Source of the DNA: a plasmid
DNA: 64,000 nucleotides
Direction: 5' to 3' (one strand)
Sequence record: AP025670.1
Below the pieces are notes generated by a model. The model did not search any database and was not told the DNA's origin. It saw only the letters and a list, made by a program, of their open reading frames with translations. This document shows, piece after piece, positions 19,018 through 44,594 of this stretch. The position numbers and the translations under genes are program-made. Within the stretch, counting starts at the first letter, position 1. Each line of letters begins with the position of its first letter.

Positions 19018-19030
19018 AGATATAACACAA

Positions 19031-19870: not shown

Positions 19871-19890
19871 TTTATTTTGAGATAATTATA

Positions 19891-21313: not shown

Positions 21314-21393
21314 TACTTTTAAGACTGTTTACTAAGAAAAAAGATACCATATAACGGGTACATTGCCTTTTTAATTTCTGAAGGCTGAAGCTC

Positions 21394-22143: not shown

Positions 22144-22480
22144 AAGCTGTATCGCATTAGTTTGCTTTTTCTTGTCATCTTGTGGTTCTACCACAGGGGC
22201 GATCACTACACACGAGCATCTTGTGACGCAAGCCACACAAGATAAGCATGTCAGTTCAGGTGGCTTCGACAGAGTAGCTGATACCTATGTACTGGCAAGA
22301 GAGATTACTGGTCTTGAATCCAACGAAATAAAGCAACTCTATGAGGTGAAGGGGAGTGACAACACATTAATAAAAATTGATATGGCATCTATACCATGCT
22401 CGATATTGCTTAAAAAGAACACAAGTCAAAGTAGTGAGATTTGGCTTATAACTGATATGGGTTGCAATGAATATTTATAA
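22127..22480 (+). CDS. small lipoprotein (lipobox LSSC)
   Basis: Signal peptide ending …FFLSSCGS; overlaps the upstream gene. Confidence 0.5.
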   Translation: MMGINRSCIALVCFFLSSCGSTTGAITTHEHLVTQATQDKHVSSGGFDRVADTYVLAREITGLESNEIKQLYEVKGSDNTLIKIDMASIPCSILLKKNTSQSSEIWLITDMGCNEYL

Positions 22481-23036
22481 AATCTCAGTAATCAGCTCCC
22501 TTTTATTTTCTTCTTTGTCATACAGCAAACCTATTTTTATAGGAGATTCACTTACCTATGAGATAGCTAAAGGGTACAGCACAATCCAAGCTGTTGATGC
22601 TCGATACAAAGTAGGTAGCGGATTATCCACAAAGAATATCCTTGATTGGCAGAGATACGCAGAGCAATTCAGTTTTGAAGAATACGATACCGTTTATGTG
22701 ATTCTCGGTACTAACGACCATGTTCAAATATCAGAAAAAGAAAAGTACACCTCTAAAGTTCGGCATTTTATCCAAACCATAAAAGCCAGAAACCAAAATG
22801 TAATCTGGTTACTTCCTCCAACCCTTAAAGACACCGCCAAAAACAGACTATTAGATAACACTCGGCAAGCCATAATGACGGCTTCGCAGATAGAGGGGAT
22901 CACCACCGTAGATACACGAACGGTTCTTGGTGAAACATACAAGGATGTCATAGATGGGACAACAGTTCGCACAAAGGATGGAATACATATCACTCCAAAC
23001 GGAGCCTTACTTACCGTGACACAGCTACTATTTTAG
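22467..23036 (+). CDS. secreted SGNH/GDSL hydrolase
   Basis: Signal peptide, GDSL block …IFIGDSLTYE… and C-terminal …DGIHITPNG… (DxxH). Confidence 0.65.
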   Translation: MNIYKISVISSLLFSSLSYSKPIFIGDSLTYEIAKGYSTIQAVDARYKVGSGLSTKNILDWQRYAEQFSFEEYDTVYVILGTNDHVQISEKEKYTSKVRHFIQTIKARNQNVIWLLPPTLKDTAKNRLLDNTRQAIMTASQIEGITTVDTRTVLGETYKDVIDGTTVRTKDGIHITPNGALLTVTQLLF

Positions 23037-23053
23037 TAAATTGGAATGTTGTA

Positions 23054-23989
23054 ATGAGAAGAAAGCGTAGATTTAAGAAACGAAATCCCTATGTAACTAA
23101 TATGAATATTGCATTTATATTCTATATGACCACTCTGGTATTTCTTAGATTTGATTCTATTGCGAGAGTTTTAACTTTAGTAATACCTTTATTTGCTGTT
23201 TATATATTGTCACCTAGCAGCAAAATATTGAGGTTACACAAGAGAAAGAAACCTGAATGGGCTTCAGTGGGAATCAAAAGAAATGCCCCTCTATTAAACC
23301 CTCAAGTTGCATTAGTGATAATTGCTGTTACCACAATAACTGTATTTTTTCTTCGTTATGACCATGTAATAACAACGAAAATCATACAACTGATATGGGG
23401 AGATATAAAAACAGCATATGCTGATATTTTCGGGAAAAGCAGTGCGAATAAATTATTCTCTCTGAGGAATATCCCAGTTTGTACATATTATACATTCCAT
23501 ATATTACGTTCATGCGTTGCATTTCTGCTCGTGGCTTATTCAGCAAGTGTCTATTTTCGTTATAAACAACAAACTATGTTTAAAAAGGTACTTTTTAATG
23601 CCACCTATCATGAAGATGCATTGCAATTTATCCGAGAATTATCATGGCGAGAATTTGAGGAATTTATAAGAGAGTTATTCAACAGCCTTGGGTACAGAGC
23701 TACTGTCACTAATTATGGTCCAGATGGTGGGAAAGATATCATTATGGAACGTGATGGAATCAAAGTTTTCGCTCAATGCAAACACTGGAAATCTGACAAT
23801 GTAGGTGTTGCTATCGCCCGTGAAATGGTTGGTGTACTAGAAGCAGAACCCGAATTTAAGCATGTATTTCTAGTCACATCAGGTAAGTTTTCTAACGATG
23901 CAGTTCTATACAGTCACAGAACATCTGACCGTCTGACACTCATGGACGGAAAAATGATAGCCGATAAATTATTGCTGTTAAGAAAGTAA
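23054..23989 (+). CDS. membrane-anchored Mrr-cat (restriction-endonuclease-like, PD-(D/E)xK) protein
   Basis: Four N-terminal TM helices, then …FEEFIRELFNSLGY…YGPDGGKDIIMERDGIKVFAQCKHW…, which fits the Mrr catalytic-domain pattern (DGG-D … QCK). Confidence 0.6.
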   Translation: MRRKRRFKKRNPYVTNMNIAFIFYMTTLVFLRFDSIARVLTLVIPLFAVYILSPSSKILRLHKRKKPEWASVGIKRNAPLLNPQVALVIIAVTTITVFFLRYDHVITTKIIQLIWGDIKTAYADIFGKSSANKLFSLRNIPVCTYYTFHILRSCVAFLLVAYSASVYFRYKQQTMFKKVLFNATYHEDALQFIRELSWREFEEFIRELFNSLGYRATVTNYGPDGGKDIIMERDGIKVFAQCKHWKSDNVGVAIAREMVGVLEAEPEFKHVFLVTSGKFSNDAVLYSHRTSDRLTLMDGKMIADKLLLLRK

Positions 23990-26565: not shown

Positions 26566-28101
26566 TTAGATTTGTGTTGTACTATTTAAAAAAATGTGTA
26601 GTTCTTCCGGAGTTACTATTGGAATGTTTCTTTTTTTGTCTTTTCTATATTTTATTAATGAAATTATTTCCATAATTACCATTGATACCGATAGAGCTTT
26701 CGTAGCTCTGGTTACTGCAACGTATAACAAATTTAATTCATCATTAATAAATATTAGATTCTGTTTTTGTTTTGGTGTTTTCTCAATATATTCAACTAAT
26801 GAAACATAATCATCATCAATCTCAATATATTCCCATTCAAGTCCTTTCGATGAATGTGCAGTTACAAGCGTTAAATCAGCATCATTGTAATTATTAACTG
26901 CTGCTTCTTTAATTTTATCAACCAGCTCTAGAATATCAGGCTCATTTTCAATTAGGTGTATCGTCCTTTTCAACGTATTGTCGCCTGAGTTCTCTGCAAC
27001 GCTTACAACCCGATCCCAATTTGGATAGTCGTATAAAAATGCTTTTCTCTTAATCATTTTAGTATTGCCGATATACAGATAGTAAAAATCAGCAATATCG
27101 TCTAAAGCATACCTATCAATACCACCTACGAAGAACACTTTTTTACCGTTTCTTCCAGCGTCAATTGCATTGATCAACACAGATAGATTGGTGCGTGAAA
27201 TCACAGTTCTAGGGAAGATATTCTTGATTTCAGCTTTATTTATGAGCTTATCAGTAATACCGGTCGTTTTAAGGCTTACAGTCTCCCCTTTTAACATCAG
27301 TATGGCATTTGCGATAGCTGCTACACATCGTCCAAACCGATATGACGTAGTTAGACGCAATATCTGAGCTCCATCACGTACAGAGGCATCTAGGGCATCA
27401 TTTGCCCCACGCCAGCGGTTGATCATCTGGTGCGTATCACCTACAAAGATTCGTTTGCATTCACATTTATCTAGCATTGCCTTCGTTACTAAGTTGGCAT
27501 CCTGTGCTTCATCAAACAAAATGATATCGAACCATGTATGTAGGGGAGGGGCTACTAACTGAAAATATTTTATGTAAAAGTCAGGGGGAGCAGGGAAGTC
27601 ACTGTTAGGGTCAGCTTGTAATTCAAAAATGAGTTTTGCATTTTCTAATGCGCATTTCCTAACATTTTCAGCATGTTTTTTACCATTCCCTGTGTTCTCT
27701 GTTGGAACGTGATGTATCTGTAACGAATAATCAGCAGACCTATAATAATTATTTAGAGTCTCGATTATGAGAAATTGCAATTGAACAGATGTAATATTTA
27801 GTAGCCGAGCCACATCGAACCCATTGAAATTAAACTTCATTTTGTACTTCAATTTTTTCAAATACCGATATGCCATTGCATGAGTGGTGATCACTTTGGT
27901 ATTAGAAGGAAATTTTTGTGATGCTTCTATCTGTATGCCTTTGTTGTAAGCTAAGTACAAAATACGTTTATCCGGATTACGCTTTGCCAATTGAGTCAAT
28001 ATGAACGTTTTGCCTGAACCTGCATAAGCCTGACAGCAAATATACTTTTCTTCAGAGGCTAAAATGGCTTCTTGTTCTTGAGATAAGATTATCTTTGACA
28101 T
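26566..28101 (-). CDS. UvrD/Rep-like superfamily 1 DNA helicase (short form, 511 aa)
   Basis: Walker A …AYAGSGKTF…, …RILYLAYN…, …FVGDTHQMINRWRGA… and C-terminal …LVTAHSSKGLEWEYIEI…. Confidence 0.75.
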   Translation of the reverse strand: MSKIILSQEQEAILASEEKYICCQAYAGSGKTFILTQLAKRNPDKRILYLAYNKGIQIEASQKFPSNTKVITTHAMAYRYLKKLKYKMKFNFNGFDVARLLNITSVQLQFLIIETLNNYYRSADYSLQIHHVPTENTGNGKKHAENVRKCALENAKLIFELQADPNSDFPAPPDFYIKYFQLVAPPLHTWFDIILFDEAQDANLVTKAMLDKCECKRIFVGDTHQMINRWRGANDALDASVRDGAQILRLTTSYRFGRCVAAIANAILMLKGETVSLKTTGITDKLINKAEIKNIFPRTVISRTNLSVLINAIDAGRNGKKVFFVGGIDRYALDDIADFYYLYIGNTKMIKRKAFLYDYPNWDRVVSVAENSGDNTLKRTIHLIENEPDILELVDKIKEAAVNNYNDADLTLVTAHSSKGLEWEYIEIDDDYVSLVEYIEKTPKQKQNLIFINDELNLLYVAVTRATKALSVSMVIMEIISLIKYRKDKKRNIPIVTPEELHIFLNSTTQI

Positions 28102-28304
28102 GAAAATGCCTTTATATCATTATGTTACAGTTAACATAACATAATTGCGTAATGGTTTTTAGCGAAAGGGAATGTAATCCTTCCCCAAAGATTACTGTCT
28201 ATTGTTTTTGTGCCCCGCAGATCCTATGCTGATATCCAAGTGGGGTTATGGATACACAAGAGAGTATCCGGATGGTGATTTTAATATCCATTAATATTAC
28301 TCAG

Positions 28305-28338
28305 ATAAAAAAAGCCGTATTCTCATACGGCTTTTCTT
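28305..28338 (-). terminator. Hairpin GCCGTAT-tctc-ATACGGC flanked by A- and T-runs, 3' of the pilin-like gene
   Basis: Stem-loop plus a poly-A on the plus strand (poly-T on the minus strand). Confidence 0.55.
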
Positions 28339-28355
28339 TGAGTTGCTGCTTTCTA

Positions 28356-28715
28356 CTACAATATCGGTAATGCCGTTGTTACTGCAACAGATGAAGTCAT
28401 GATACCGTTGATGATATCCGGAGCATAGTACAGACCAATTGCCGCACCAACCGCCACTGCAAAGGTCATTAACGACTGACGAACAACCGCCGCAGCAATA
28501 CCAACAACTACAATCAGCCCCACTAACACACGACCTAATGACCCCTGCATATATGCAGTAATTTGCATCCATACTTCTTTGAAACCGGACTGTTCGGTTC
28601 CTTTGCCATAGGCAAACATAACTGCCAGTGCCGCTACACATAACACTGCGAAAACCACGAAAAGCACTTTTTTGGTATCAATTTTCGGCATGGCACATGT
28701 TTTTACTAATTGCAT
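28356..28715 (-). CDS. conjugative pilin-like protein (TraA/TrbC/VirB2-like topology)
   Basis: Leader peptide (MQLVKTCAMPKIDTKKVLFVVFAVLCVAALAVMFAYG), a hydrophilic segment, then two hydrophobic helices; adjacent to a DsbA/C-like gene. Confidence 0.4.
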   Translation of the reverse strand: MQLVKTCAMPKIDTKKVLFVVFAVLCVAALAVMFAYGKGTEQSGFKEVWMQITAYMQGSLGRVLVGLIVVVGIAAAVVRQSLMTFAVAVGAAIGLYYAPDIINGIMTSSVAVTTALPIL

Positions 28716-28828
28716 ATCTAACCCTTCTATATTTACAGTATTAAAATGACAGCAAACTACTATCAACGTGGATTTTACATTTACTAATTAATATTTATCT
28801 TTTATAAGGTTACTAAAACGAATTGGTT

Positions 28829-29635
28829 TTATTGTGATTTTTTCATCATAGCTTCGATGGTGTTTACAAACATATCCATTGGTACAGCACCTTCTATCAC
28901 ACGTTTTTCTCCAGTTTTATTATCAACTATTACCGTTGTAGGTGTGCCTGAAACACCAAGAGAACGGCTTTCTGCCTTGTCTTTATCTAAAGTTAACTTT
29001 ACAGAGTCAGTTTTAAGACATGTGTTATACGCAACAGGGTCTAACTCAAACATTCCGATCATATCTGCGGTAGCAAAATCAAATTCATGATTCCCCCACA
29101 TTGAAATGATCTTCCAGTGATTGTCAGTGTTTTGAGCACCAGCACAGAGCATTTTCACGGCATAATCAGTAGCATTTGGCTCGTGGAATGGTAGAGGGCT
29201 GTTTTTCCATTTCCAATTGACTAAACCACCATTCGCCTTATCAACTAGTGTTTTAGGAGTAGATGCGAAACGTTGGCAATATGGACATTGGAAATCCATG
29301 TATGTTACAAGTGAAAATCTCGCATTCTCATTGCCATAAGTTAGTGTGTTGGAATCAAGCTGGACTTGGGAAAGATTGAGATTTGGTTCTTCAGGTTGAG
29401 CTTCAGGCTGTTGGACCGGCTCAGTATTTTCAGACAGAGACAAAATTTTGCTTAAAGACTGGTTTACACCAGCACTTTCTGTTTTTGTAGCATTTTGAAT
29501 AGTAATTGACGAAGCCAATAGTATATTAGTTTGCTTTAGCTCACTTGTGGTTAAATAGGTACTGGTTATTCCTACGCCAACTATTGTAGTTAAAAGTGCA
29601 ATCACTGATTTTTGATACGTTGATAATTTATTCAT
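28829..29635 (-). CDS. periplasmic thiol:disulfide oxidoreductase (DsbA/DsbC/TrbB-like; CPYC active site)
   Basis: Signal-anchor and thioredoxin motif …DFQCPYCQRF…. Confidence 0.7.
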   Translation of the reverse strand: MNKLSTYQKSVIALLTTIVGVGITSTYLTTSELKQTNILLASSITIQNATKTESAGVNQSLSKILSLSENTEPVQQPEAQPEEPNLNLSQVQLDSNTLTYGNENARFSLVTYMDFQCPYCQRFASTPKTLVDKANGGLVNWKWKNSPLPFHEPNATDYAVKMLCAGAQNTDNHWKIISMWGNHEFDFATADMIGMFELDPVAYNTCLKTDSVKLTLDKDKAESRSLGVSGTPTTVIVDNKTGEKRVIEGAVPMDMFVNTIEAMMKKSQ

Positions 29636-29651
29636 AATGAAAAATACCTTT

Positions 29652-30293
29652 CTACTTTATTGCAGGTGATGGTTCGTTTTGGTTATCAATATAGATTTTC
29701 ATTCGATAGTTTTTGAGAGAGTCAGGCTCTCCATTTTGTAAAATAACTAATTCTTCATTAGTTAATTTATACTCTGGATCAGAACAGTATTTTTCTTTGA
29801 TACGAATATATTCATTCCGAGATTTTTTATTCTCAGGCGTTTCCTTCAGAAAATAATTTCGTGAATTTTCACCACAGAACGATGGTAATTCAGGTTTGGT
29901 ATAAACGTTCGATGAACTACTGCGAGCTAAACTACTTATTAACAGGTCTGTATGAAAGCTACGGTCCACAGGAATATGTTTTTTACCTTGGTCGTAGATC
30001 TCGTATGGTGATGCAATTACGTGCCTGTAACCTTGCTGTCGCAATGATGCGCCACCTCTATTCGTATCTTTCCAATTTTCGCGATATGTATAGTCAGCAG
30101 GATAAGTAGCCGTTACTGCTTTTCGAGCAATTTGCTTATCAATTACGTCATTCGCTGTACCGCCATAACCCGATTCAATGCTAATTGTGGATGTTTTTAC
30201 ATAATTTCCACACCCAAATATGGGCTTATCTGCGCTACTACAACCTGATAAGGATGTTGCAAGCAGACAACAAAATATAAATGACTTTTTCAT
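29652..30293 (-). CDS. lipoprotein (lipobox LSGC), possibly a TraV-like T4SS component
   Basis: MKKSFIFCCLLATSLSGCSS signal. The TraV-like assignment rests on context only. Confidence 0.45.
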   Translation of the reverse strand: MKKSFIFCCLLATSLSGCSSADKPIFGCGNYVKTSTISIESGYGGTANDVIDKQIARKAVTATYPADYTYRENWKDTNRGGASLRQQGYRHVIASPYEIYDQGKKHIPVDRSFHTDLLISSLARSSSSNVYTKPELPSFCGENSRNYFLKETPENKKSRNEYIRIKEKYCSDPEYKLTNEELVILQNGEPDSLKNYRMKIYIDNQNEPSPAIK

Positions 30294-30314
30294 CTAAGTT
30301 CCTCACTGAAGATC

Positions 30315-32825
30315 GTGGTGAGTATGAACTATTTAGGTGCAGTTTTTCCCGATATAACAATGCAAAACGGTTCTAATTATGAAATTGCAAATTTAAAAAC
30401 AGGTAACATTGTTGCATCAAATAATCTTAAAAATTTAGAGAAGCAGGTTCGCCGAATGTTTATAAACTGGTTAAAATCCATACTGAAATCAGGGAAAGAT
30501 CCCTTCTCAGTAGATGTGTCAACATCGCCAGATATGCAGGAATCACAGCATTCCATACTTCAAAAAGGTGAGATTGAAATTCCGGATGATATTAAATCTC
30601 AAATAGAAACATTCAAAATGCCGATTGGATATCCGCCAAAAATTGAAGGATATCCTGCAAGAATCAGCGGAAAACAATTGCTGATTAAAACCCAAGCGGA
30701 AATGATCACAAAAATCAAAAGAGAAATGCAAATCGGTGAGCTATTTGATGAATTGGTCATGCCACTACTATGTAATACTGCTGATTTTATACACTTACTA
30801 CCGGCTTCTGAAGCACATCACCACAGAGCTCAAGGAGGGCTTTTACGACACAGTTTAGAAGTCTGTTACATCGCAGTTAAGCACACAAAGACCACTGACT
30901 TTGATAGCAATGAAACCCCTGAAGAACGGTCTGCTAACGCTTTGAAATGGCGTCTTGCAGTGGCTGTAACAGCATTACTGCACGACATTGGTAAACCAGT
31001 GTCTGACTATGAAATTTGGGATCAGACTGGTGTATATCAGTGGAAACCGAGTGGAAAAAACCTGTTTCATTGGGCTGTTGAACACGATATAGAAAGATAT
31101 TTTTTACAGTGGAACAAGAAAAGGCATAACAATCATAGAATTATAGCACCTTCGCTTATTGAAAAAATTGTTCCTGCGAAAGTGATAGAACTACTTCAGC
31201 AAAATAGTAAAAACCTATATTTCAAAGTTATAGAGGCAATTTCTAACAGCGATAACATGGAACTGGCGGATAAAAAAACAATCAATGGCAATCAGTTGTT
31301 TAATATTCTGTTACTCGCAGACCGAGCCTCTGTTGCAAATGACCTTAAATTGACATCAGGTGATGCGATACGCGCTGCCGGTTCTGGTGTATCAACTATT
31401 CAGCGTCTGGTTGATACTATGCGCCAATTTATATCATCAGGTCGTTGGACCCCAAACGTTCCTCCTAGTCCGATTTGGTCAACGCCAGATGGGGTCTACA
31501 TTATTTGGGCTAGTGCCGCTGAAGAATTATGCAAAGAGATAAAAAACCTTGGAATTTTTATCCCACAATCAGCAGATAGTTTAGGTGAGATACTATTAGC
31601 TCATGATGTAATCATTGAAGCGCCAAGAGGTTCACTCTATTGGAAGATTGCACCAAAAAAGTTACTCAAATCAGCGTCGTTTATAAAAGATCCAGACACG
31701 TTCTTTTACTGCGTGAAATTAGCTTCAGACGAATTACTATTTGGCGAAAATATAAAGCCAACACATGCATCTGTTTATGTCAAAAACGAAACGAGTTGGG
31801 TTAGTTTTGAACCAAAAACAGGAACTAATGTAGAAATCACAGGTGAAAAAACTGAACCAACTATCGTAAACAATGATTTTAAGCATCAACCGATTGATAT
31901 TGTAGATAAAATAATAAATGATACACCTCCAGAATCTGATAATGTAACTAGCATAATGGAAACGCTTGAAGAACTAGCCATTATCGAGCCGGTATGTAAT
32001 GAACAAGCCGTTGAAGTACCTGAAGTTCAAGTTATAGCAGCATGTGATCTCAAGATACAGGGTGGTGATACACTGCCAGTAGGCAATCCTGCTTCTGAGA
32101 TAACCCATAAACACAGCCTAGGGTTAAAAGAACGGATTATTGCCATGAGTAAACCGTCAGTAGCACTACCAATGAAATCACTGACTGATATACCAGTAGC
32201 TACTCAATTATCTGAGCAGAAATCATTGTTTGCAGACGTGAAACTTGATGACACCGACTCCGTAGAGATTACAACTCAAAAGGGTATGCATAGTGATATC
32301 TATATTACAGCTGATCTTCATATCAGAGAGGCTTTTGAAATATATCTATTAGGGCTTTCAAAAAAACAGTTAATTAGCAACATAAATCAAAATCACTTAC
32401 TGGTTGATGATAAACTCGAAATACCCTCGGCATGGAAAGCCAGAAGCCCTCAAGCATCGCGTTCTAAAGATGATGAAGCGCTGGTGCTTTTAAGATCAAA
32501 TTTCTATCTTGTTTTGAAAAAAGAATTACTCATTGATGTATTTATCATCACTGGATTTTCTGAAATTGAACAAATGTTAAATCCAGTCATTCCTGACTTA
32601 GCAACTTCATTAATTGAAGATGTCATATTTTCTATTCACAATGAAAACGACATTTCAGAAAACCAATTTAAAACGATTCAATATATAGAGTTGAGTCGGA
32701 CAGAACTTATTGAAATATCTGCTAAGTTGGGGGTGTCTCAAACGACATTCAAACAAATCATGGCTGTTAGGTTTGAAAGCTACAACAGCCATTTTGGACT
32801 TCAATTTATGCGAGAAAAACAATGA
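30315..32825 (+). CDS. traI: MOBH-family conjugative relaxase (TraI of the SXT/IncC/R27 type) with an HD-hydrolase motif
   Basis: …SEAHHHRAQGGLLRHSLEV… followed by …ALLHDIGKP… (histidine triad plus HD), as in MobH relaxases. The start codon is uncertain (GTG 30315, ATG 30324 or later) because the divergent gene begins at 30293. Confidence 0.6.
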   Translation: MVSMNYLGAVFPDITMQNGSNYEIANLKTGNIVASNNLKNLEKQVRRMFINWLKSILKSGKDPFSVDVSTSPDMQESQHSILQKGEIEIPDDIKSQIETFKMPIGYPPKIEGYPARISGKQLLIKTQAEMITKIKREMQIGELFDELVMPLLCNTADFIHLLPASEAHHHRAQGGLLRHSLEVCYIAVKHTKTTDFDSNETPEERSANALKWRLAVAVTALLHDIGKPVSDYEIWDQTGVYQWKPSGKNLFHWAVEHDIERYFLQWNKKRHNNHRIIAPSLIEKIVPAKVIELLQQNSKNLYFKVIEAISNSDNMELADKKTINGNQLFNILLLADRASVANDLKLTSGDAIRAAGSGVSTIQRLVDTMRQFISSGRWTPNVPPSPIWSTPDGVYIIWASAAEELCKEIKNLGIFIPQSADSLGEILLAHDVIIEAPRGSLYWKIAPKKLLKSASFIKDPDTFFYCVKLASDELLFGENIKPTHASVYVKNETSWVSFEPKTGTNVEITGEKTEPTIVNNDFKHQPIDIVDKIINDTPPESDNVTSIMETLEELAIIEPVCNEQAVEVPEVQVIAACDLKIQGGDTLPVGNPASEITHKHSLGLKERIIAMSKPSVALPMKSLTDIPVATQLSEQKSLFADVKLDDTDSVEITTQKGMHSDIYITADLHIREAFEIYLLGLSKKQLISNINQNHLLVDDKLEIPSAWKARSPQASRSKDDEALVLLRSNFYLVLKKELLIDVFIITGFSEIEQMLNPVIPDLATSLIEDVIFSIHNENDISENQFKTIQYIELSRTELIEISAKLGVSQTTFKQIMAVRFESYNSHFGLQFMREKQ

Positions 32826-34735
32826 GTGATTGGAAACATTTAATGCCATTTCGTACTAACTACGAGATGTATGAAGTTTGTGGTTGGGGAACCGGTGTAT
32901 TAGCTACGGTCGGTGTTGGTACATATCTATCAATGCCTCTAACTGCTACGCTATCTGCTGCTGCGATACAAAGCATTTTCGCTATGAAATCATTGCCAAA
33001 TGCAATTAAAATTGCAGTCTTGCATAAAAACCTAAAAACCAGACCGGCTCCTACGTTTACTTCAGCCTATGATGTTGTCAAAGAAATGATGAACAATCGC
33101 GACACGACATTGATAGGTAAAGGCTTTACATGGCGGCATGAGCATGGACAACGGGCATATGAAATTTTAAAAAGTGGTGTTGCTGACAGGTTTTTACCTA
33201 ATGATCATGAAAGCATGGGGCACGGTTGGATTCATAAATTAGGGAATTCAAATGAGTGGATCAGCGTACCTGACGACTTAATGACGCTACATACGTCATT
33301 AACTGGTACTACGGGTTCCGGTAAAACGACTCTTTACAAATTACTTATTCTGCAAGCTGCTTTAAAACGGCAACCTCTTATTCTAATTGACCCTAAAAAT
33401 GATGAGGAACTTGCTGATTATATGTACAAGTGCATGAAACTAATGGAACGAGAAGATGATTTTTATTATCTTTCCATTGCACACTTGGATAAATCCAACC
33501 GGATTTCACCAATATCAAATTATTCCAACTCAACTGAAGTAGCCAGCCGTATTATTTCCGTTATCCAGAAGGCTGATAACACAACTGATCCATTTATTTC
33601 ATTTGCGACAATGACGTTGACAACTATTGTGCAGTTGATGAATTTCGCAAACGTAAAGCCTACTCTTGTAAATATAAAAGCACAGCTTGGTACTAATTTG
33701 GGTAATTTTGCTGAATTACTTGTTAAAGCAATCGACAAATTAGGATATGAGCTATTTCCTGATGTATACGACTCACTTCTTGATCGTAGACTAGAACATC
33801 AATCAATGACTAGAACGACAGGAACTATCGAGAACCATGCCGGAATAAGAATCACTATCTATCTGAATGATATTGCAAAAATTAAGGAATATACATTCAT
33901 TAAAAGTGGAATTGACCTATTTCAGCATAATCGTGAACATTTCCAAAAGATGATATTAACGGCACTACCTGTATTAAGCATGTTAACTAGTGATGGGTTA
34001 GATGAAGTATTGTCACCGTCCAGTGAGAATATTGATGATGAAAGAGTCATTACTAATATGAAAGATATCATCAATACAAACGGGATGATGTATTTAGGGC
34101 TTAATTCTCTTGCTGATGGTGATAAAGGAAACGCTGTTGGCTCAATATTTCTAAGCGATATCACTGCTGTTGCGGCTGATATTTATAACTATGCAAAACC
34201 GCGCGGTGAAAAGAAACGCGATACAAATATTCTTATTGATGAAGCTGCTGAAGTTATCAACGATCAGGTTATTCGGCTTCAAAATAAAGGGAGAGGGGCA
34301 GGGTTTAAGTTATTCATTGCCTCACAGTCTACCACTGACTACGTTGCTACCCTTGGCTCTGAAGCGAAAAAAGAACAAGTTAGTATAAATGCGAACCATA
34401 ACATTGCATTACGGACTATCAATATTCAAGGTCAAAAAGATTTAATAGAAAGAATACCAACTACAAATTTCAAGTACATCCAAAGAGGGCATGGTACGAG
34501 TTCGGGGGAAGATCCAGAAAAAATCACCGGAAGTATTGGTGAGCGATTGATGGAGGTTGAGAGTGAGTTATTTCCTCCACAACTATTAGGAAACCTCCCA
34601 AATCTAGAGTTTTGCGCTATTTTAAAAGCGGGGAATATATGTAAAGGTCAAATTCCAATTGTACAATTACCAACCAGCGAAAAAGAAGTATTAAAGTTAA
34701 AGATGCTAATCAAAGAATTTAATAAGGCACGTTAA
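32822..34735 (+). CDS. traD: type IV coupling protein (TraD/VirD4 family)
   Basis: Two N-terminal TM helices, Walker A …LTGTTGSGKTT… and Walker B …ILIDEAAE…; overlaps the relaxase stop. Confidence 0.65.
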   Translation: MSDWKHLMPFRTNYEMYEVCGWGTGVLATVGVGTYLSMPLTATLSAAAIQSIFAMKSLPNAIKIAVLHKNLKTRPAPTFTSAYDVVKEMMNNRDTTLIGKGFTWRHEHGQRAYEILKSGVADRFLPNDHESMGHGWIHKLGNSNEWISVPDDLMTLHTSLTGTTGSGKTTLYKLLILQAALKRQPLILIDPKNDEELADYMYKCMKLMEREDDFYYLSIAHLDKSNRISPISNYSNSTEVASRIISVIQKADNTTDPFISFATMTLTTIVQLMNFANVKPTLVNIKAQLGTNLGNFAELLVKAIDKLGYELFPDVYDSLLDRRLEHQSMTRTTGTIENHAGIRITIYLNDIAKIKEYTFIKSGIDLFQHNREHFQKMILTALPVLSMLTSDGLDEVLSPSSENIDDERVITNMKDIINTNGMMYLGLNSLADGDKGNAVGSIFLSDITAVAADIYNYAKPRGEKKRDTNILIDEAAEVINDQVIRLQNKGRGAGFKLFIASQSTTDYVATLGSEAKKEQVSINANHNIALRTINIQGQKDLIERIPTTNFKYIQRGHGTSSGEDPEKITGSIGERLMEVESELFPPQLLGNLPNLEFCAILKAGNICKGQIPIVQLPTSEKEVLKLKMLIKEFNKAR

Positions 34736-35086
34736 ATGGATAATATTGTCCCAGAGTATGAGTTTAGATCCAATGCAAGCGACATATATTTTGCTCGTTT
34801 TCTTCTCCAGTGGAATATTTGTAGCCGTCAGATCATATTGATGCTTCTATCTATGAAGGACACTGAATTTGAAACCATTTTCTGTGACTACTTCAACGAA
34901 CAAATTGAGAAATATTATCAAAGAAAAAAAACTGATTTGAAGATTTCAGATTGGGACAATCTAGCAATAGTCATTTCAAAATCCATAATTTTTCTTTCAA
35001 AGTTAAATAACACTTCGCCTTTAGATGAATATCACAAGTATAAATTCCCTGAAAGGTTAGATAATAGCGTTATTTCCAGTTTCTAA
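34736..35086 (+). CDS. hypothetical protein (116 aa) translationally coupled to the coupling-protein gene
   Basis: ATG overlaps the upstream TAA. Confidence 0.35.
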   Translation: MDNIVPEYEFRSNASDIYFARFLLQWNICSRQIILMLLSMKDTEFETIFCDYFNEQIEKYYQRKKTDLKISDWDNLAIVISKSIIFLSKLNNTSPLDEYHKYKFPERLDNSVISSF

Positions 35087-35097
35087 AGAGGTTATTA

Positions 35098-35295
35098 ATG
35101 TCAGCCGATACACAATCTAACGGTAGCTCAATTAAAAAACTGTTACTTACGGTAACAGTTTTACTCATTATCATGTCATTGTTTATCCCTGCTGAATGGT
35201 ATAAATCAAACATGGTTAGCGAGTTAAAAATGGGCGAATTGATTACTGGTTCAAGTTTGATTCCTTGGACTCTTCAGAATACAGACAGCAAATAA
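35098..35295 (+). CDS. small membrane protein whose 3' end is fused into the ISEcp1 fragment. It is probably truncated by the element
   Basis: GAGG RBS and a TM helix; the last about 15 codons are read from ISEcp1-derived DNA. Confidence 0.35.
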   Translation: MSADTQSNGSSIKKLLLTVTVLLIIMSLFIPAEWYKSNMVSELKMGELITGSSLIPWTLQNTDSK

Positions 35296-35624
35296 AGACC
35301 TTTCGTTTGAAGTATGTATTTCTTGCAGCAAAAATAATCAAAACCGCAAGATATGTAATCATGAAGTTGTCGGAAAACTATCCGTACAAGGGAGTGTATG
35401 AAAAATGTCTGGTATAATAAGAATATCATCAATAAAATTGAGTGTTGCTCTGTGGATAACTTGCAGAGTTTATTAAGTATCATTGCAGCAAAGATGAAAT
35501 CAATGATTTATCAAAAATGATTGAAAGGTGGTTGTAAATAATGTTACAATGTGTGAGAAGCAGTCTAAATTCTTCGTGAAATAGTGATTTTTGAAGCTAA
35601 TAAAAAACACACGTGGAATTTAGG
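35250..35624 (+). mobile_element. ISEcp1: 3' fragment of ISEcp1 (last about 46 codons of tnpA, promoter, and IRR ACGTGGAATTTAGG at 35611-35624)
   Basis: tnpA tail …EYRQQIKTFRLKYVFLAAKIIKTARYVIMKLSENYPYKGVYEKCLV*, the promoter-bearing tail GATTGAAAGGTGGTTGTAAATAATGTTACAATG and the exact IRR match my recollection of ISEcp1. No full tnpA is present. Confidence 0.85.
35521..35550 (+). promoter_or_regulatory. ISEcp1 outward promoter (-35 TTGAAA 35521-35526; -10 TACAAT 35545-35550) driving blaCTX-M
   Basis: Consensus-like hexamers inside the ISEcp1 tail, about 125 bp upstream of the bla ATG. Confidence 0.7.
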
Positions 35625-35673
35625 TTCAATGAATACTTGAAGGCCAAGGGATAATACTAATAGAGGATTTTTA

Positions 35674-36549
35674 ATGATGACTCAGAGCATTCGCCGCTCA
35701 ATGTTAACGGTGATGGCGACGCTACCCCTGCTATTTAGCAGCGCAACGCTGCATGCGCAGGCGAACAGCGTGCAACAGCAGCTGGAAGCCCTGGAGAAAA
35801 GTTCGGGAGGTCGGCTTGGCGTTGCGCTGATTAACACCGCCGATAATTCGCAGATTCTCTACCGTGCCGATGAACGTTTTGCGATGTGCAGTACCAGTAA
35901 GGTGATGGCGGTCGCGGCGGTGCTTAAACAGAGCGAGAGCGATAAGCACCTGCTAAATCAGCGCGTTGAAATCAAGAAGAGCGACCTGGTTAACTACAAT
36001 CCCATTGCGGAGAAACACGTTAACGGCACGATGACGCTGGCTGAGCTTGGCGCAGCGGCGCTGCAGTATAGCGACAATACTGCCATGAATAAGCTGATTG
36101 CCCATCTGGGTGGTCCCGATAAAGTGACGGCGTTTGCTCGCTCGTTGGGTGATGAGACCTTCCGTCTGGACAGAACCGAGCCCACGCTCAATACCGCCAT
36201 TCCAGGCGACCCGCGTGATACCACCACGCCGCTCGCGATGGCGCAGACCCTGAAAAATCTGACGCTGGGTAAAGCGCTGGCGGAAACTCAGCGGGCACAG
36301 TTGGTGACGTGGCTTAAGGGCAATACTACCGGTAGCGCGAGCATTCGGGCGGGTCTGCCGAAATCATGGGTAGTGGGCGATAAAACCGGCAGCGGAGATT
36401 ATGGCACCACCAACGATATCGCGGTTATCTGGCCGGAAAACCACGCACCGCTGGTTCTGGTGACCTACTTTACCCAACCGGAGCAGAAGGCGGAAAGCCG
36501 TCGGGATATTCTGGCTGCGGCGGCGAAAATCGTAACCCACGGTTTCTGA
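35674..36549 (+). CDS. blaCTX-M-2: class A extended-spectrum beta-lactamase, CTX-M-2 group (KLUA-type)
   Basis: [28 protein letters not shown]… N-terminus and full-length match to the CTX-M-2 lineage; STSK, SDN and KTG motifs; a GC-rich ORF inside AT-rich DNA. Confidence 0.9.
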
Positions 36550-36555
36550 TGCAAT

Positions 36556-36582
36556 AAATGGAGCGAGGTATCGCTCCATTTA
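36556..36582 (+). terminator. Terminator hairpin AAATGGAGCGA-ggta-TCGCTCCATTT after blaCTX-M-2
   Basis: 11-bp perfect stem plus a T. Confidence 0.65.
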
Positions 36583-36784
36583 CGTTAAAAATGTGCTCCT
36601 GAACTTCAGTCTTGTCTTGCAACGAACCCTCATCTCTTTCTATCATTCCGCTCTTTTTTCTGGACCAAATATCTTAGCTTCAGGAAGGTAATAGATAACA
36701 ATTTCTTATGTAAACTATTTTATTTTAAATAATGTTTAAGGCATTTAATTATTAGGTTGTTTGTTTTTATTGTAATTATCTGAT

Positions 36785-37435
36785 TTACACTTGCAGTATT
36801 CCTATAGTAAACAACGACCACGGAGATTTATCAGGACTATACAGCCAACTTGCAGATTTTAAACGGGCGCTTGCAATATCACGTCTGGTTATGAAGTAAA
36901 TCAAGTGAGTATCGTCATGCAGAAGGTAGTCAACATACACCCCCCTGAAATTACCTCTTTCACCGATTGAGCCTTTGTCGAATTGGTCTATAAGAATATT
37001 TCCAACATCAGCAAAAGGGTCATAGTGATGTGTTGGTGGTGTCCGTCTGCCATTGAACTCAAATTTATCTTTTTCAAAAACTAAATCTATAATTAAGTTT
37101 TTGCACATTTGAGCTTCAATAGCCATTTTAATTAAACCCAAATACGAGACATCAAGAATAACACGCTCATCTCTGGGTACTAAGTATGCTAATTTTTGAG
37201 CAGGGTCTAACGTTAGTGACGTTGTTGCAAGCTGTAAAAAAGCAGTTTTAAAACTAGCGGGATTATTAATAGCAATCGCCATTAGTTTTTTGTTGTTATC
37301 AATCTGATTCTTAGCAAAAATTGCTTCATTAAAATACGATGTTTCACTAAGAGAGTTCTCAGTAAATTTCGGTTTTAAACTTGCGATTATGTTAGAAACA
37401 GCTTTGCTACCTTGAACTATATTCGATGATGACAT
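36785..37435 (-). CDS. RecT/Bet-like single-strand annealing protein (216 aa)
   Basis: …KLAYLVPRDERVILDVSYLGLIKMAIE… resembles the RecT-family core; assignment tentative. Confidence 0.4.
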   Translation of the reverse strand: MSSSNIVQGSKAVSNIIASLKPKFTENSLSETSYFNEAIFAKNQIDNNKKLMAIAINNPASFKTAFLQLATTSLTLDPAQKLAYLVPRDERVILDVSYLGLIKMAIEAQMCKNLIIDLVFEKDKFEFNGRRTPPTHHYDPFADVGNILIDQFDKGSIGERGNFRGVYVDYLLHDDTHLIYFITRRDIASARLKSASWLYSPDKSPWSLFTIGILQV

Positions 37436-37512
37436 ATATAAGATACCTATTTAAGAAACAAAAAAACCGCATATAGCGGCTATTGTTTGAATTGGAATTG
37501 ATGAATATTAGT

Positions 37513-38010
37513 TCAAATAGATTTTTTACTATTTAATGAACTTAATAATTGGCTTTTTAACAAAAGCTGATTATTATCATATTTATTTTCTTCCAATTTT
37601 TTATTTGATTCATCAAGCGAATTTCTGGATTTATTAAAGTTTAATATATCCGTTAACTCTCTGATGCGTTCTAAACTTCTAACGCGCTGTTGTCTTGCTT
37701 CCTCATCTATTTCAATCTCTGATTTTGTTTGGTAAGTATTAACGCCATTGATTGATAATATAAATGGAAGAATATAGAATCTTTCTTTAACAATATTGTT
37801 AATTACAGATTCTTTTAATTTAACTTCACCCTTTGCAAATATCGTATCATTGCTTTTAGCATTTGATAATATCTCTGCAAGTTTGGTGTCCTTACAAACT
37901 ATATGAAAGTAAGCACTTTGATCTTCAAGCATAACATCATAGACTATTTTGTCTTTTACTTGAGTCGAGCGAATAATATTTATTTTACCTGAGAATGATA
38001 ATTCACACAT
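37513..38010 (-). CDS. hypothetical protein (165 aa), possibly an OB-fold partner of the annealing protein
   Basis: ORF with a coiled-coil C-terminus. Confidence 0.3.
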   Translation of the reverse strand: MCELSFSGKINIIRSTQVKDKIVYDVMLEDQSAYFHIVCKDTKLAEILSNAKSNDTIFAKGEVKLKESVINNIVKERFYILPFILSINGVNTYQTKSEIEIDEEARQQRVRSLERIRELTDILNFNKSRNSLDESNKKLEENKYDNNQLLLKSQLLSSLNSKKSI

Positions 38011-38140
38011 ATTTTCACCTATTTATTAAATAAGAGACACATAATTAAAACTATGAGCTCAGAGTTTTTGAATAAAGTATATTCAATGATTGAATATATT
38101 TTATTAGGGCGTAGAAAAGCCTTGACTGTTAAGCGTGATG

Positions 38141-38869
38141 CTAAACAGTTGTGATTAACCAGAAAGATCTCCGTTTGGGAGATGCCAGTTTCTCACTACC
38201 GAGTCGGTTTCCTGACTCATCAATTATACGGGCATATTCAACAACTTCTTCACGCTCTTTTTTGAGTGTGATGAAATCACCTTTCTGCACCGTTGAGTTA
38301 GCAATTGCATCTGCCAGACCTAAACCCCAAATGATATCTTCATCAATACGAACGTAATAGGACCGTCTGTTTTGAGGTTTGAACTGGTAGTGCGCTACTC
38401 CGAAATCACGTAAAATACCGTGGTATTCTTTGTGAGAGCCCTTTCGACAGTCGTTAGAAGATGAAAGCTGTGCTTCATTTCTATCCAATCTATCGCTATT
38501 TAAGGCGCAAATTTCCGGATAATTATTGCTTGAGTCGTCTTTTTGCTCACAATCGTGTGCAATCATTAACTCGTGTGAAGTTGGAACTTCAGCGTTTGGA
38601 TATAGGTTCACATCATCGGCATTGCGAAAATGTGCCTTTCGTCTATTAAGCTGATCTCTATTGCGTTTATTCAGATACAAAATCATGAAGATAGTTGTAC
38701 TGATAGCAATCGAAACCAGATTTTTAGTGCTAAAACTTTCTACGTTTGGTAGTGATCCATCCCACAAAAACACAAGCGCAAACATTATTGAAGCGTATGC
38801 AACCGTGAATTTATAGTTCAGGCAGGCGTGAACAAGCACACCAATCACTAGTATTGATATGATTAACAT
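38141..38869 (-). CDS. membrane-anchored hypothetical protein (242 aa)
   Basis: Two N-terminal TM helices and a soluble C-terminal domain. Confidence 0.35.
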   Translation of the reverse strand: MLIISILVIGVLVHACLNYKFTVAYASIMFALVFLWDGSLPNVESFSTKNLVSIAISTTIFMILYLNKRNRDQLNRRKAHFRNADDVNLYPNAEVPTSHELMIAHDCEQKDDSSNNYPEICALNSDRLDRNEAQLSSSNDCRKGSHKEYHGILRDFGVAHYQFKPQNRRSYYVRIDEDIIWGLGLADAIANSTVQKGDFITLKKEREEVVEYARIIDESGNRLGSEKLASPKRRSFWLITTV

Positions 38870-39155
38870 ATAATTTACCTTCGTAAACTTGGGTATTATT
38901 GGAGAGTTTAAAGCCGTTAGTAGTAAAAACTACTTCGGGGGAGAGAGGGATTATTGAGATCTCTCTGAATTGAACTATGAGTTAACATAGCTAGATGTAG
39001 TGTCAATCAGACACTTGTAACAGAACCATTTTGTTTCAAAAATAATAAGAATGCAAGTCCCTTTTTTGATTACAACTTTTATTGCTATCATGAAAAGTTC
39101 TTTTTTATTGGTACGTATAATGAAGGTCTTTGAAACCGGTTTTGGAGAAAACATG

Positions 39156-39815
39156 AGTCAGGATAAAGAAGTTGTCGATTCAGTAACTACACGAAAAACA
39201 AGACGGAAAAAAGTAACTTCTGTACCGTCGTCTGAATACCAAATGCATTTAGATACCACTATTGCGATTGATGCCTATCATCAACGGTTCTTTGTAGCAA
39301 GCCAAGCCGCCTATTTGTTGGAACAGCGCCTTGAACGCTGTCTTATGCATCGAGACAAAATTATGCGTGATCGAGCTGCTGCTATCATGAAGTCACTCAA
39401 TCAGGCAGTTGATAGTAATTTTTCTGATATAGAAAACTATAAGCAGACATTGGCACAGGTCATAGCTGAAGTAGAGGCTGAACGGGGTACTAAATATGAG
39501 TTATTGAGTTACTCTACTCCCCGCGATATGACGATTGAAAACCGTACCTATCTGGCTACACGAATGTGCAGTGGTTTAGAAACACTGGATCTCATAATCA
39601 AGTACCTTGATGTTTGCCGACATTACTCGTTAGTACCATTGGCTGAAATACTGGAAACTCAAATCACTGCCGATAAGCGTATTCGCGGTATATTTAGTAC
39701 GATTATTCGTCATGGCGAAACAATGAAGCGTTTAGAAATCGATCATTCGATAAATGCAAAAAATGCTAAAAATGAATTAAATAATAATGACAGCACTGGT
39801 GCTGAAGATAAATAA
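39156..39815 (+). CDS. hypothetical protein (about 220 aa from MSQDKE; the ORF is listed from 39051)
   Basis: ORF; the GGAGAAAAC RBS-like sequence precedes 39156. Confidence 0.35.
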   Translation, partial: SQDKEVVDSVTTRKTRRKKVTSVPSSEYQMHLDTTIAIDAYHQRFFVASQAAYLLEQRLERCLMHRDKIMRDRAAAIMKSLNQAVDSNFSDIENYKQTLAQVIAEVEAERGTKYELLSYSTPRDMTIENRTYLATRMCSGLETLDLIIKYLDVCRHYSLVPLAEILETQITADKRIRGIFSTIIRHGETMKRLEIDHSINAKNAKNELNNNDSTGAEDK

Positions 39816-39840
39816 TTTTTCTGTAAACTAAATGTATAAA

Positions 39841-39862
39841 GGTGGTCAGCTACGTGACCACC
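39841..39862. terminator. Bidirectional terminator GGTGGTCA-gctacg-TGACCACC between convergent genes
   Basis: 8-bp perfect stem. Confidence 0.55.
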
Positions 39863-39879
39863 TAGTTAATATTTTAAAT

Positions 39880-40515
39880 TTATAATTCATTACTATTTGG
39901 TGGAATAACTGTAAATTCTTTATCTTTTGCATTCGATTCTAGCAACATTATCTTTTCTCTCAACCTATAAATTTCAATATCTATTTTATATTGTTTATGT
40001 GCCTTTCTGTTAAGAATTGAGGGTTTTTTAGGCTCGGTATCTAAATTATAAATTGGATGTAGATACCAGTCTTTATTTCTAACCACAGTAGGGGATGGAT
40101 TCCAGTCTACACCTTGAAAAATAAGCCCGCGAGTATTCGGATATACGACTGATTGCCAATGATTTAGTGTGCTAAATGTTGATATGTTATTTGGGTCATA
40201 TTTTACTTCATCTGAAGTTATCAAGTGAAAAATACTATTTTCAAATTCTGGCGGGGGGAGGGGCTGATCAAATGTGTTACCAAATGCTAATTTATGAATC
40301 CCTTTAAACTTGAATATAAGTCGTATTTGCGCGTTTGTTTCGTAATCTTCTATTTTATCCTTTATGTGAAAATTAGCATGTCTGCCTACATCTTTATTAC
40401 TATAAATATTTTCACTTTCTAAAATTGATATGGCTGATTTAATAGATGTCCAATGATATAACTTTTCAAATAAGTTTATTTTAATTTCAGGAACAGCATA
40501 AATTTTAGTTATCAT
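39880..40515 (-). CDS. hypothetical protein (211 aa)
   Basis: ORF only. Confidence 0.35.
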   Translation of the reverse strand: MITKIYAVPEIKINLFEKLYHWTSIKSAISILESENIYSNKDVGRHANFHIKDKIEDYETNAQIRLIFKFKGIHKLAFGNTFDQPLPPPEFENSIFHLITSDEVKYDPNNISTFSTLNHWQSVVYPNTRGLIFQGVDWNPSPTVVRNKDWYLHPIYNLDTEPKKPSILNRKAHKQYKIDIEIYRLREKIMLLESNAKDKEFTVIPPNSNEL

Positions 40516-40661
40516 ATTACCCTTATTTTACGTAATGTACTCTCTGTTAAAGAGTACATTACATGCTTTTAAAGTATGATTCTACAACAATCCATCCACT
40601 GAAAGATCATATACGTACTTTCTTGTCCTGATCCCGTAGGGTATCTGAATGAGCCCCCCTG

Positions 40662-41481
40662 GGCACTGTTGCAAAGTTAGCGATGAGGCAGCCTTTTGTC
40701 TTATTCAAAGGCCTTACATTTCAAAAACTCTGCTTACCAGGCGCATTTCGCCCAGGGGATCACCATAATAAAATGCTGAGGCCTGGCCTTTGCGTAGTGC
40801 ACGCATCACCTCAATACCTTTGATGGTGGCGTAAGCCGTCTTCATGGATTTAAATCCCAGCGTGGCGCCGATTATCCGTTTCAGTTTGCCATGATCGCAT
40901 TCAATCACGTTGTTCCGGTACTTAATCTGTCGGTGTTCAACGTCAGACGGGCACCGGCCTTCGCGTTTGAGCAGAGCAAGCGCGCGACCATAGGCGGGCG
41001 CTTTATCCGTGTTGATGAATCGCGGGATCTGCCACTTCTTCACGTTGTTGAGGATTTTACCCAGAAACCGGTATGCAGCTTTGCTGTTACGACGGGAGGA
41101 GAGATAAAAATCGACAGTGCGGCCCCGGCTGTCGACGGCCCGGTACAGATACGCCCAGCGGCCATTGACCTTCACGTAGGTTTCATCCATGTGCCACGGG
41201 CAAAGATCGGAAGGGTTACGCCAGTACCAGCGCAGCCGTTTTTCCATTTCAGGCGCATAACGCTGAACCCAGCGGTAAATCGTGGAGTGATCGACATTCA
41301 CTCCGCGTTCAGCCAGCATCTCCTGCAGCTCACGGTAACTGATGCCGTATTTGCAGTACCAGCGTACGGCCCACAGAATGATGTCACGCTGAAAATGCCG
41401 GCCTTTGAATGGGTTCATGTGCAGCTCCATCAGCAAAAGGGGATGATAAGTTTATCACCACCGACTATTTGCAACAGTGCC
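40662..41481 (-). mobile_element. IS26: IS26, second copy, inverted relative to the first
   Basis: Identical 820 bp with inverted repeats at 40662-40675 and 41468-41481; the flanking 8-mers differ (no target-site duplication). Confidence 0.95.
40714..41418 (-). CDS. tnpA: IS26 transposase Tnp26
   Basis: Protein identical to the first copy. Confidence 0.95.
   Translation of the reverse strand: MNPFKGRHFQRDIILWAVRWYCKYGISYRELQEMLAERGVNVDHSTIYRWVQRYAPEMEKRLRWYWRNPSDLCPWHMDETYVKVNGRWAYLYRAVDSRGRTVDFYLSSRRNSKAAYRFLGKILNNVKKWQIPRFINTDKAPAYGRALALLKREGRCPSDVEHRQIKYRNNVIECDHGKLKRIIGATLGFKSMKTAYATIKGIEVMRALRKGQASAFYYGDPLGEMRLVSRVFEM

Positions 41482-44594
<3,113 letters not shown>

Follow-up and report, generated by a model that had tools for sequence, protein, structure and literature searches.

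Plasmids of the IncC group carry a long transfer region in the order traI-traD-traLEKBVA-traC-traWUN. A related type of system is found on the pPrY2001-like plasmids of Proteus and Providencia; pHFK418-NDM, which is pPrY2001-like and intact, conjugates at 1.5e-2 (PMC6737455). Here we describe what has become of such a system in a 64,000-nucleotide stretch of plasmid DNA (sequence record AP025670.1), which we call the window. The block from 26.5 to 35.25 kb is very probably the proximal part of a pPrY2001-like conjugative transfer region (relaxase class MOBH, mating-pair formation type MPF-F, related to SXT and IncC), captured in an IncC/IncT mosaic plasmid and deprived of its type IV secretion system (T4SS). 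Two divergent units are retained, namely lipoprotein-dsb-traA, with a UvrD-like helicase gene alongside, and mobH-traD-orf116 with the stump of dtrJ. The genes beyond dtrJ are gone, very probably through rearrangements in which an ISEcp1-blaCTX-M-2-type unit and IS26 took part: dtrJ is cut at codon 51, a 3.9-kb piece of backbone is inverted and traU is down to 30 codons. With no secretion channel encoded, the plasmid should be non-self-transmissible, and its intact mobH, traD and traA would be recent passengers rather than a selected mobilization device. A reading of this DNA made earlier without database searches (the sequence-only reading) had proposed an SXT/IncC-like MOBH/MPF-F module that lost its T4SS, and in that it was right.

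What an intact version looks like can be read from pPv1-49741 (hereafter pPv1), a plasmid that is conjugative by MOB-suite typing. On the left arm of its transfer region the lipoprotein, dsb, traA and helicase genes run in that order away from mobH. The right arm reads mobH, traD, orf116, a DUF4400 gene, a hypothetical gene, trx, traL, traE, traK, traB and traV, and continues with dsbC, traC, another hypothetical gene, an S26 peptidase gene, traW/trbC and traU. Farther on come recT, exo, traF, traH, traG, traN and a gene for an FlhC-type (AcaCD-like) activator. Positions 28000-35250 of the window are 100% identical to pPv1 and to three other Proteus/Providencia plasmids; the plasmids that share the module are 90-140 kb in size. 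Local BLAST gives 99.86% between pPv1 and the window over 17.4 kb, and taken over 21 kb the identity is 99.86-100%, well within the >96% DNA identity that marks the backbone of pPrY2001-like plasmids. The other mark of the group, repA with its iterons, is missing: the pPv1 rep region (73.4-76.7 kb) is unmatched in the window and in its closest sibling, the plasmid p.BML2526. By these comparisons the block is a captured fragment and not a pPrY2001-like member plasmid. The sequence-only reading had called it a relic. That word fits the loss of the T4SS; it does not fit a long decay, given the 100% identity to pPv1 and the sharp ISEcp1-blaCTX-M and IS26 junctions. What these features point to is a recent rearrangement, associated with insertion sequences (IS), in one Japanese plasmid lineage.

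The junctions can be placed to the base pair. Homology to pPv1 ends at window position 35250, in codon 51 of dtrJ (35098-35250, plus strand). This truncated DUF4400/DtrJ-like gene keeps 51 of 219 codons; the 51 N-terminal residues are identical to the DUF4400 protein of pPv1, and the sequence then diverges. The DtrJ-like family PF14348 matches the full-length dtrJ orthologues of Xenorhabdus and metagenome relatives, and with dtrJ cut after codon 51 the DNA-processing set is itself incomplete in the window. At 35251 begins a 374-bp 3' remnant of ISEcp1 (35251-35624, plus strand), ending in its right inverted repeat (IRR), ACGTGGAATTTAGG, at 35611-35624; Escherichia coli matches over 35249-36000 are annotated as ISEcp1 and CTX-M-2. 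The remnant is followed by blaCTX-M-253, that is, CTX-M-2 with Ala80Val (35674-36549, plus strand; PMC9431670), and by the downstream tail of the blaCTX-M unit (36550-36804). From 36805 to 40661, on the minus strand, lies a piece of pPrY2001-type backbone that is 100% identical to pPv1 48803 to 44947, reversed. It contains the 5' part of recT, four small open reading frames (ORFs) and, at 40572-40661, what is left of traU, its final 30 codons (TraU residues 322-351). Abutting the traU remnant is an 820-bp IS26 with terminal inverted repeats (40662-41481, minus strand), annotated as IS26 in p.BML2526 too. The exact breakpoints are 35250/35251, 36804/36805 and 40661/40662. Among PLSDB records, the junction of dtrJ with ISEcp1-CTX-M occurs only in p.BML2526; it is also present in one Japanese short-read contig of 5.4 kb.

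The sibling deserves a fuller introduction, since the absence of the T4SS beyond the window is judged on it. The window almost certainly comes from pNR1418-1 (AP025670) of Providencia rettgeri NR1418, a 172.7-kb plasmid with IncC and IncT replicons (PMC9431670). The plasmid p.BML2526 (P. rettgeri, NZ_LC507075.1; 204.8 kb) is the sole PLSDB record that matches window 28000-36000 end to end, and both are IMP-70/CTX-M plasmids of P. rettgeri from Osaka. By local BLAST, p.BML2526 70442-113807 corresponds to window 1-43366, with one mismatch in the 35,367 bp from 8000 to 43366. That mismatch, at 35912, falls in codon 80 of the CTX-M gene and changes Ala to Val, the very change that defines CTX-M-253, which was described from pNR1418-1 (PMC9431670). 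The parts of the pPv1 backbone present in p.BML2526 are 6696-33179 and 44947-48803, and no others. Two stretches of pPv1 lack a counterpart both in the window and in p.BML2526: 33180-44946, which runs from the cut in dtrJ to traU, and 48804-77079, which holds traF, traH, traG, traN, the activator and rep.

The sequence-only reading held that the T4SS core genes are absent from the window, and tblastn with 18 transfer-region proteins of an intact relative, plus IncC TraF, TraH and TraG, bears this out. Matches were confined to the N-terminal 51 residues of DtrJ, the C-terminal 30 of TraU and a thioredoxin paralogue; no TraL, TraE, TraK, TraB, TraV, TraC, TraW, TraN, TraF, TraH or TraG was found in the window. 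A complete MPF-F set comprises traL, E, K, B, V, C, W, U, N, F, H and G, and all the window holds of it is 30 traU codons. A complete T4SS just outside the window would, as that reading conceded, make this an intact conjugative element. There is none in the fully sequenced p.BML2526. By annotation and tblastn across the whole sibling, the only transfer genes besides the remnant are traF, traH and traG of IncC type, accompanied by an IncC mobI and by acaCD-like genes; the traF, traH and traG genes start 433 bp past the position that matches the right end of the window. The IncC region from traI to traWUN is not in p.BML2526 either (annotation, tblastn), and an IS26 sits at the break. To judge from its gene content, the sibling encodes no channel-forming component.

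This absence bears on a published experiment, in which filter mating failed to bring the bla genes of NR1418 into E. coli J53 and transformation was needed to move them; the authors suggested that recipient compatibility might play a part (PMC9431670). The missing T4SS core is the simplest reason for the failed mating. Several points weigh against our account. The authors state that pNR1418-1 "has tra genes", which they do not list (PMC9431670). One negative mating with one recipient is by itself no proof of inability to transfer. The window is 64,000 nucleotides of a 172.7-kb plasmid, and the absence of a T4SS elsewhere on pNR1418-1 is judged on p.BML2526; about 26 kb of pNR1418-1 have no counterpart in that sibling and may include more IncT (Rts1-like) backbone. 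The two IS26 copies of the window, moreover, share no matching 8-bp target duplication from which the order and mechanism of the rearrangements could be reconstructed.

Turning to the genes that remain, all of the ORFs listed in the sequence-only reading are present where it had placed them. Its central claim was an HD-motif MOBH relaxase, and it had staked the case on MobH homology in an 836-residue protein. The homology is there. The mobH gene (30315-32825, plus strand; longest ORF 836 residues) scores 308 bits against NF041494 (cut-off 200) and 227 bits against PF07514 (E = 3e-67, cut-off 23.9), in both cases above the curated cut-offs of these family hidden Markov models (HMMs). Its motifs HHH (residues 168-170) and LLHDIGKP (221-228) are invariant across six aligned MobH sequences, those of the window and five homologues, and its product has the same RefSeq protein accession as in pPv1. 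Next to it lies traD (32822-34735, plus strand), encoding a 637-residue type IV coupling protein of the SXT TraD subfamily; here, too, the TraD/VirD4-type assignment stands, with TIGR03743 SXT_TraD at 462 bits (cut-off 366), PF12696 and a Walker A motif, GTTGSGKT, at residue 162. In a check for an N-terminal membrane anchor, no stretch of 19 residues exceeds a Kyte-Doolittle mean of 1.6, and residues 20-55, approximately, are moderately hydrophobic. The mobH stop and traD start overlap (ATGA), and the next ORF begins directly after the traD stop, an arrangement from which mobH, traD and orf116 would appear to be translationally coupled. The third gene, orf116 (34736-35086, plus strand), encodes a conserved 116-residue protein of unknown function, which matched no Pfam or NCBIfam family and occupies the same position 3' of traD in relatives at 38-40% identity.

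Divergently from these genes run those for the lipoprotein, Dsb and pilin, as the sequence-only reading had it. The traA pilin gene (28356-28766, minus strand) matches NF041281 TraA_gammapb at 96.3 bits, above the cut-off of 50, and PF04956 weakly; its product has two hydrophobic segments, and the gene is annotated traA in p.BML2526. The longest ORF gives 136 residues, and the RefSeq start (PGAP pipeline) at 28715 gives 119. Just downstream of traA, at 28307-28338 on the minus strand, is a terminator-like hairpin with 14-nt arms, 93% complementary, and A/T runs on both sides. The dsb gene (28829-29635, minus strand), which is syntenic in distant relatives, encodes a 268-residue DsbA-like protein of thioredoxin fold (Thioredoxin_4), with matches to PF13462 (E = 1e-13) and PF01323 (E = 4e-11); the CPYC of the predicted thiol-disulfide oxidoreductase is at residue 117.

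The lipoprotein (29652-30293, minus strand; 213 residues, lipobox LSGC) is the one whose name has to change. It had been called TraV-like. It matches no Pfam or NCBIfam family at E <= 0.01, the TraV models (PF09676 and the NCBIfam TraV) included, and BLASTP against pPv1 TraV gives E = 0.66. The true traV of this plasmid type lies elsewhere, at pPv1 38098-38610 between traB and dsbC/traC, and in the equivalent place in relatives, so that on position, similarity and HMMs alike TraV was rejected as an identity for this lipoprotein. In relatives with a relaxase at only 41-42% identity, the lipoprotein still reaches 57-63% (locus L008 9173-9853; metagenome locus L010 3137-3793), and its family forms 6 clusters among 5.8 billion proteins. 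From this distribution it looks like a conserved, clade-restricted orphan component of the transfer region. An AlphaFold2 model built from a 4-sequence alignment had a mean predicted local distance difference test (pLDDT) score of 43.6 and was unusable. Since the gene order lipoprotein-dsb-traA is kept in relatives with so divergent a relaxase, the unit appears to be a genuine conserved part of the transfer region.

Beyond traA lies the gene for a 511-residue UvrD-like helicase (26566-28101, minus strand; PF00580, PF13361, PF13538). In pPv1 a UvrD-type helicase gene directly adjoins traA, and in the Xenorhabdus and metagenome relatives one is found on the same side, separated from traA by one or two small ORFs. 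A UvrD-like gene is also found beside IncC tra genes, just upstream of traF in p.BML2526 (190893-192404), near the right end of the window. The MOBH relaxase HMM matches here include no helicase-domain family. The UvrD-like protein may be a conjugation-associated helicase for MOBH systems.

The start of mobH and the DNA in front of it need a paragraph of their own. The lipoprotein ATG is indeed separated from the GTG at 30315 by 21 bp, and the doubt raised in the sequence-only reading about the relaxase start was justified: the start lies within 30315-30456, and the sequence cannot narrow it. RefSeq (PGAP pipeline) starts mobH at 30324, and there are further in-frame ATGs at 30360 and 30456. 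The MobH domain begins near residue 112 of the 836-residue ORF; alignment with distant relatives shows clear conservation from residue 57 or so onward, and plausible conservation from about residue 38. The first 50 bp or so after the lipoprotein start codon (to about 30335), including the ATG at 30324, can be aligned with DNA that is intergenic in the Xenorhabdus and metagenome relatives, in which mobH starts some 110-170 nt downstream of the aligned block. The intergenic region before mobH is longer in these two (147-415 bp); the 415 bp of the metagenome relative result from what are apparently two tandem copies of the lipoprotein 5' end and the conserved upstream block (L010 3794-4100). Among relatives 97-98% identical, the 137 nt of 30285-30421 show a single substitution, and the 125 nt that follow show about 17. 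Such near-invariance suggests a cis-acting role (for example, divergent promoters) that overlaps or replaces the annotated mobH N terminus. On the intergenic alignment and the low substitution we mark 30294-30455 as a putative divergent control region, without strand, overlapping the 5' end of mobH.

Is this region also an origin of transfer (oriT)? In IncA/C plasmids oriT lies upstream of mobI, apart from the relaxase gene (PMC5587640). No oriT was identified in our search of the window, and no IncC MobI homologue (phmmer) or IncC-oriT-like DNA (blastn-short) was found in the window or in pPv1. The sequence-only reading had suggested looking for an oriT-like inverted repeat near 30300-30540 or 35090-35300; the inverted repeats around these places, at 30300-30700 and 35100-35160, are short and of a quality expected by chance. 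Scans for inverted repeats, promoters and terminators at 28.1-28.4, 30.15-30.7 and 35.0-35.3 kb returned chance-level repeats, with the traA terminator hairpin as the sole convincing feature, and promoter-like sites in these three intervals were fewer than in shuffles. The conserved block upstream of the lipoprotein gene varies in spacing between relatives, and a degenerate motif made from it gave nothing usable against the other tra operons of pPv1 (the motif was mis-specified, the spacing variable). Ten hypothetical proteins of the backbone, scanned against Pfam as candidate accessories of the relaxosome, matched no family. One can nevertheless imagine a joint reading in which 30294-30430 (about 140 bp) is the oriT and control region of pPrY2001-type plasmids, the mosaic plasmid is mobilizable by a co-resident pPrY2001-like helper, and the lipoprotein, better conserved than the relaxase, serves this MOBH subgroup as a new component essential for transfer or exclusion. 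We consider it unlikely.

Could the block be more than a passenger? As a working mobilization module, its MobH and TraD would act on a retained cognate oriT and a co-resident pPrY2001-like or other MPF-F helper would supply the transport, much like the hijacking of a helper T4SS that the sequence-only reading had in mind for an element of the chromosomally integrating kind, here applied to a plasmid. The mobH, traD, orf116, traA, dsb and lipoprotein ORFs are all undamaged and do not differ from their counterparts in plasmids typed as conjugative, the low substitution between lipoprotein and mobH is as expected of a cis-acting site, and a related IMP-70 IncA/C plasmid was reported in Providencia stuartii in the same survey (PMC11250026). 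Intact ORFs, however, are what one expects without any selection when the DNA is 100% identical to that of intact plasmids. The IncA/C precedent places oriT by mobI and not by the relaxase gene, and neither a MobI homologue, IncC-oriT-like DNA nor inverted repeats above chance came to light in the searches described above. The gene that follows traD as its partner in every relative, dtrJ, is truncated here, the pPrY2001-type AcaCD-like activator genes are lost, and no oriT is known for pPrY2001-like plasmids. With dtrJ truncated, the activator lost and no oriT identified, we rate a mobilizable module as improbable. Less probable by some distance is a chimera, in which the pPrY2001-type MobH, TraD and TraA would work with IncC TraF, TraH and TraG, AcaCD, MobI and oriT and with tra genes in the remaining 26 kb or so of pNR1418-1. 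The IncC traF, traH, traG, acaCD-like and mobI genes are there in the sibling just beyond the right end of the window, and pNR1418-1 has an IncT replicon and further sequence (PMC9431670). Yet tblastn finds homologues of TraL, E, K, B, V, C, W and N nowhere in the 204.8-kb sibling, with TraU just a 30-codon remnant; by our size estimate, some 26 kb are unlikely to fit a full MPF-F set; the TraF, TraH and TraG proteins of pPv1 and IncC are 27-36% identical, which makes mixed assemblies doubtful; and there was no transfer in mating (PMC9431670).

The idea we credit least, and barely at all, is that the plasmid harbors an integrative and mobilizable element (IME) equipped with an integrase of its own; an IME had been raised as a possibility in the sequence-only reading. 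A tyrosine-recombinase-type integrase gene does lie at 17992-19017, and the region is AT-rich compared with the resistance region. But in pPv1 and other pPrY2001-like plasmids the integrase, the module and the maintenance genes on its left are all colinear parts of a single backbone, and the low G+C belongs to the whole of this Proteus/Providencia plasmid backbone (window composition; PMC6737455). An IME should be a discrete element with attachment (att) boundaries, an integrase and its own oriT. This block lies in a multi-replicon plasmid and is instead colinear on its left with the pPrY2001-type maintenance genes parB, ssb, parFG, mazEF and hok, and on its right ends at the ISEcp1 junction within dtrJ, with no att site. 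The account that we favor remains a pPrY2001-like transfer region, truncated and carried along.

The S26 peptidase at 21394, which had been counted with the transfer set, does not belong to it. Its identity to the S26 peptidase encoded between traC and traW is only 23%, that tra-linked copy is among the deleted genes, and the Xenorhabdus relative has no counterpart of the 21394 gene beside its module. The gene sits in an islet at 17992-23989, whose other genes code for the integrase, a DUF4365 protein that weakly matches a model of Aga-type nucleases, a GDSL lipase, an Mrr-like restriction nuclease of type IV and unknown proteins; the islet is part of the pPv1 backbone too and is possibly defence-related.

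Around the captured block the window is a mosaic. Positions 1-10726 carry Rts1-like genes with HigBA, an IS26 and then MFS, SulP, universal stress protein and umuC genes. The pPrY2001 fragment follows, and after it come IS26 and then, within 41482-64000, ISCR1-blaMOX, qacEdelta1-sul1, IS1326/tni, the mer operon, IS5075 and IncC backbone. The MOX-type AmpC ORF is at 43425-44594, behind ISCR1, and window 45965-64000 corresponds by local BLAST to the sul1-mer-IncC region of p.BML2526. That sibling differs from the window in having CTX-M-2 instead of CTX-M-253 and in lacking the MOX-1 segment. In the published pNR1418-1 a truncated ISEcp1 precedes blaCTX-M-253, and blaMOX-1 lies 6.9 kb beyond that gene on its downstream side (PMC9431670); the allele and the position of MOX-1 in the window agree with this description, with no difference as far as testable. 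A protein identical to CTX-M-253 (Ala80Val) is encoded in unrelated surroundings as well (loci L012, L014 and L015), so the allele alone is not diagnostic of, or unique to, NR1418. In L012 and L014 the place of ISEcp1 is taken by a full-length transposase gene, and L012 lies on an IncFII-RepA/trb-type contig.

What does all this amount to? A known conjugative backbone, a recent IS-associated truncation and a published mosaic resistance plasmid are each already known and ordinary; the practical value is small, and our knowledge of MOBH systems is unchanged. The finding does offer a concrete genetic reason for the non-transfer of the NR1418 bla genes, namely a plasmid lineage without secretion-channel genes. 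It also illustrates how ISEcp1-blaCTX-M insertion and IS26 activity can disable a transfer region and yet spare its relaxase, coupling protein and pilin genes. And it carries a small caution about typing. The PLSDB/MOB-suite label of p.BML2526 is "conjugative, MOBH, MPF_F", despite a gene set limited to TraF, TraH and TraG plus relaxase, coupling protein and pilin. The label rests on an incomplete set, and MOB-suite typing over-calls the conjugative ability of this plasmid.

Set beside its closest known systems, the locus is easily placed. With the pPrY2001-like plasmids (pPrY2001, pHFK418-NDM, pPp47, pPv1-49741 and others) it shares backbone DNA at 99.9-100% identity over window 10.7-35.25 and 36.8-40.66 kb and the same proteins (rlx = MobH, cpl = TraD, TraA, ParFG, MazEF and Ssb; PMC6737455). 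It differs from them in keeping about 30 kb of a backbone of about 70 kb, set in an IncC/IncT mosaic, and in having lost the repA/iteron region, the T4SS genes ("tiv" in PMC6737455), traF, traH, traG, traN and the FlhC-like activator. The kinship with IncC (IncA/C2) plasmids and SXT/R391 elements is more distant. The window relaxase is at most 36-37% identical to other MobH proteins, in the catalytic domain only; and whereas IncC/SXT traA follows traV, here traA, dsb and the unique lipoprotein gene run divergently from mobH, and no MobI homologue was detected. IncC and SXT/R391 share with the window an HD-domain MOBH relaxase, an SXT-type TraD, a DUF4400/TraJ-like gene after traD, an F-type pilin and a Dsb protein, and with its intact relatives an S26 peptidase gene between traC and traW and an FlhDC-like activator. 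Between these two circles of kin stand a replicon of Xenorhabdus sp. TH1 (CP147735.1) and a metagenome contig, with lipoproteins 57-63% and relaxases 41-42% identical to those of the window, in which the gene order is identical from helicase to traC and the region is intact through traC.

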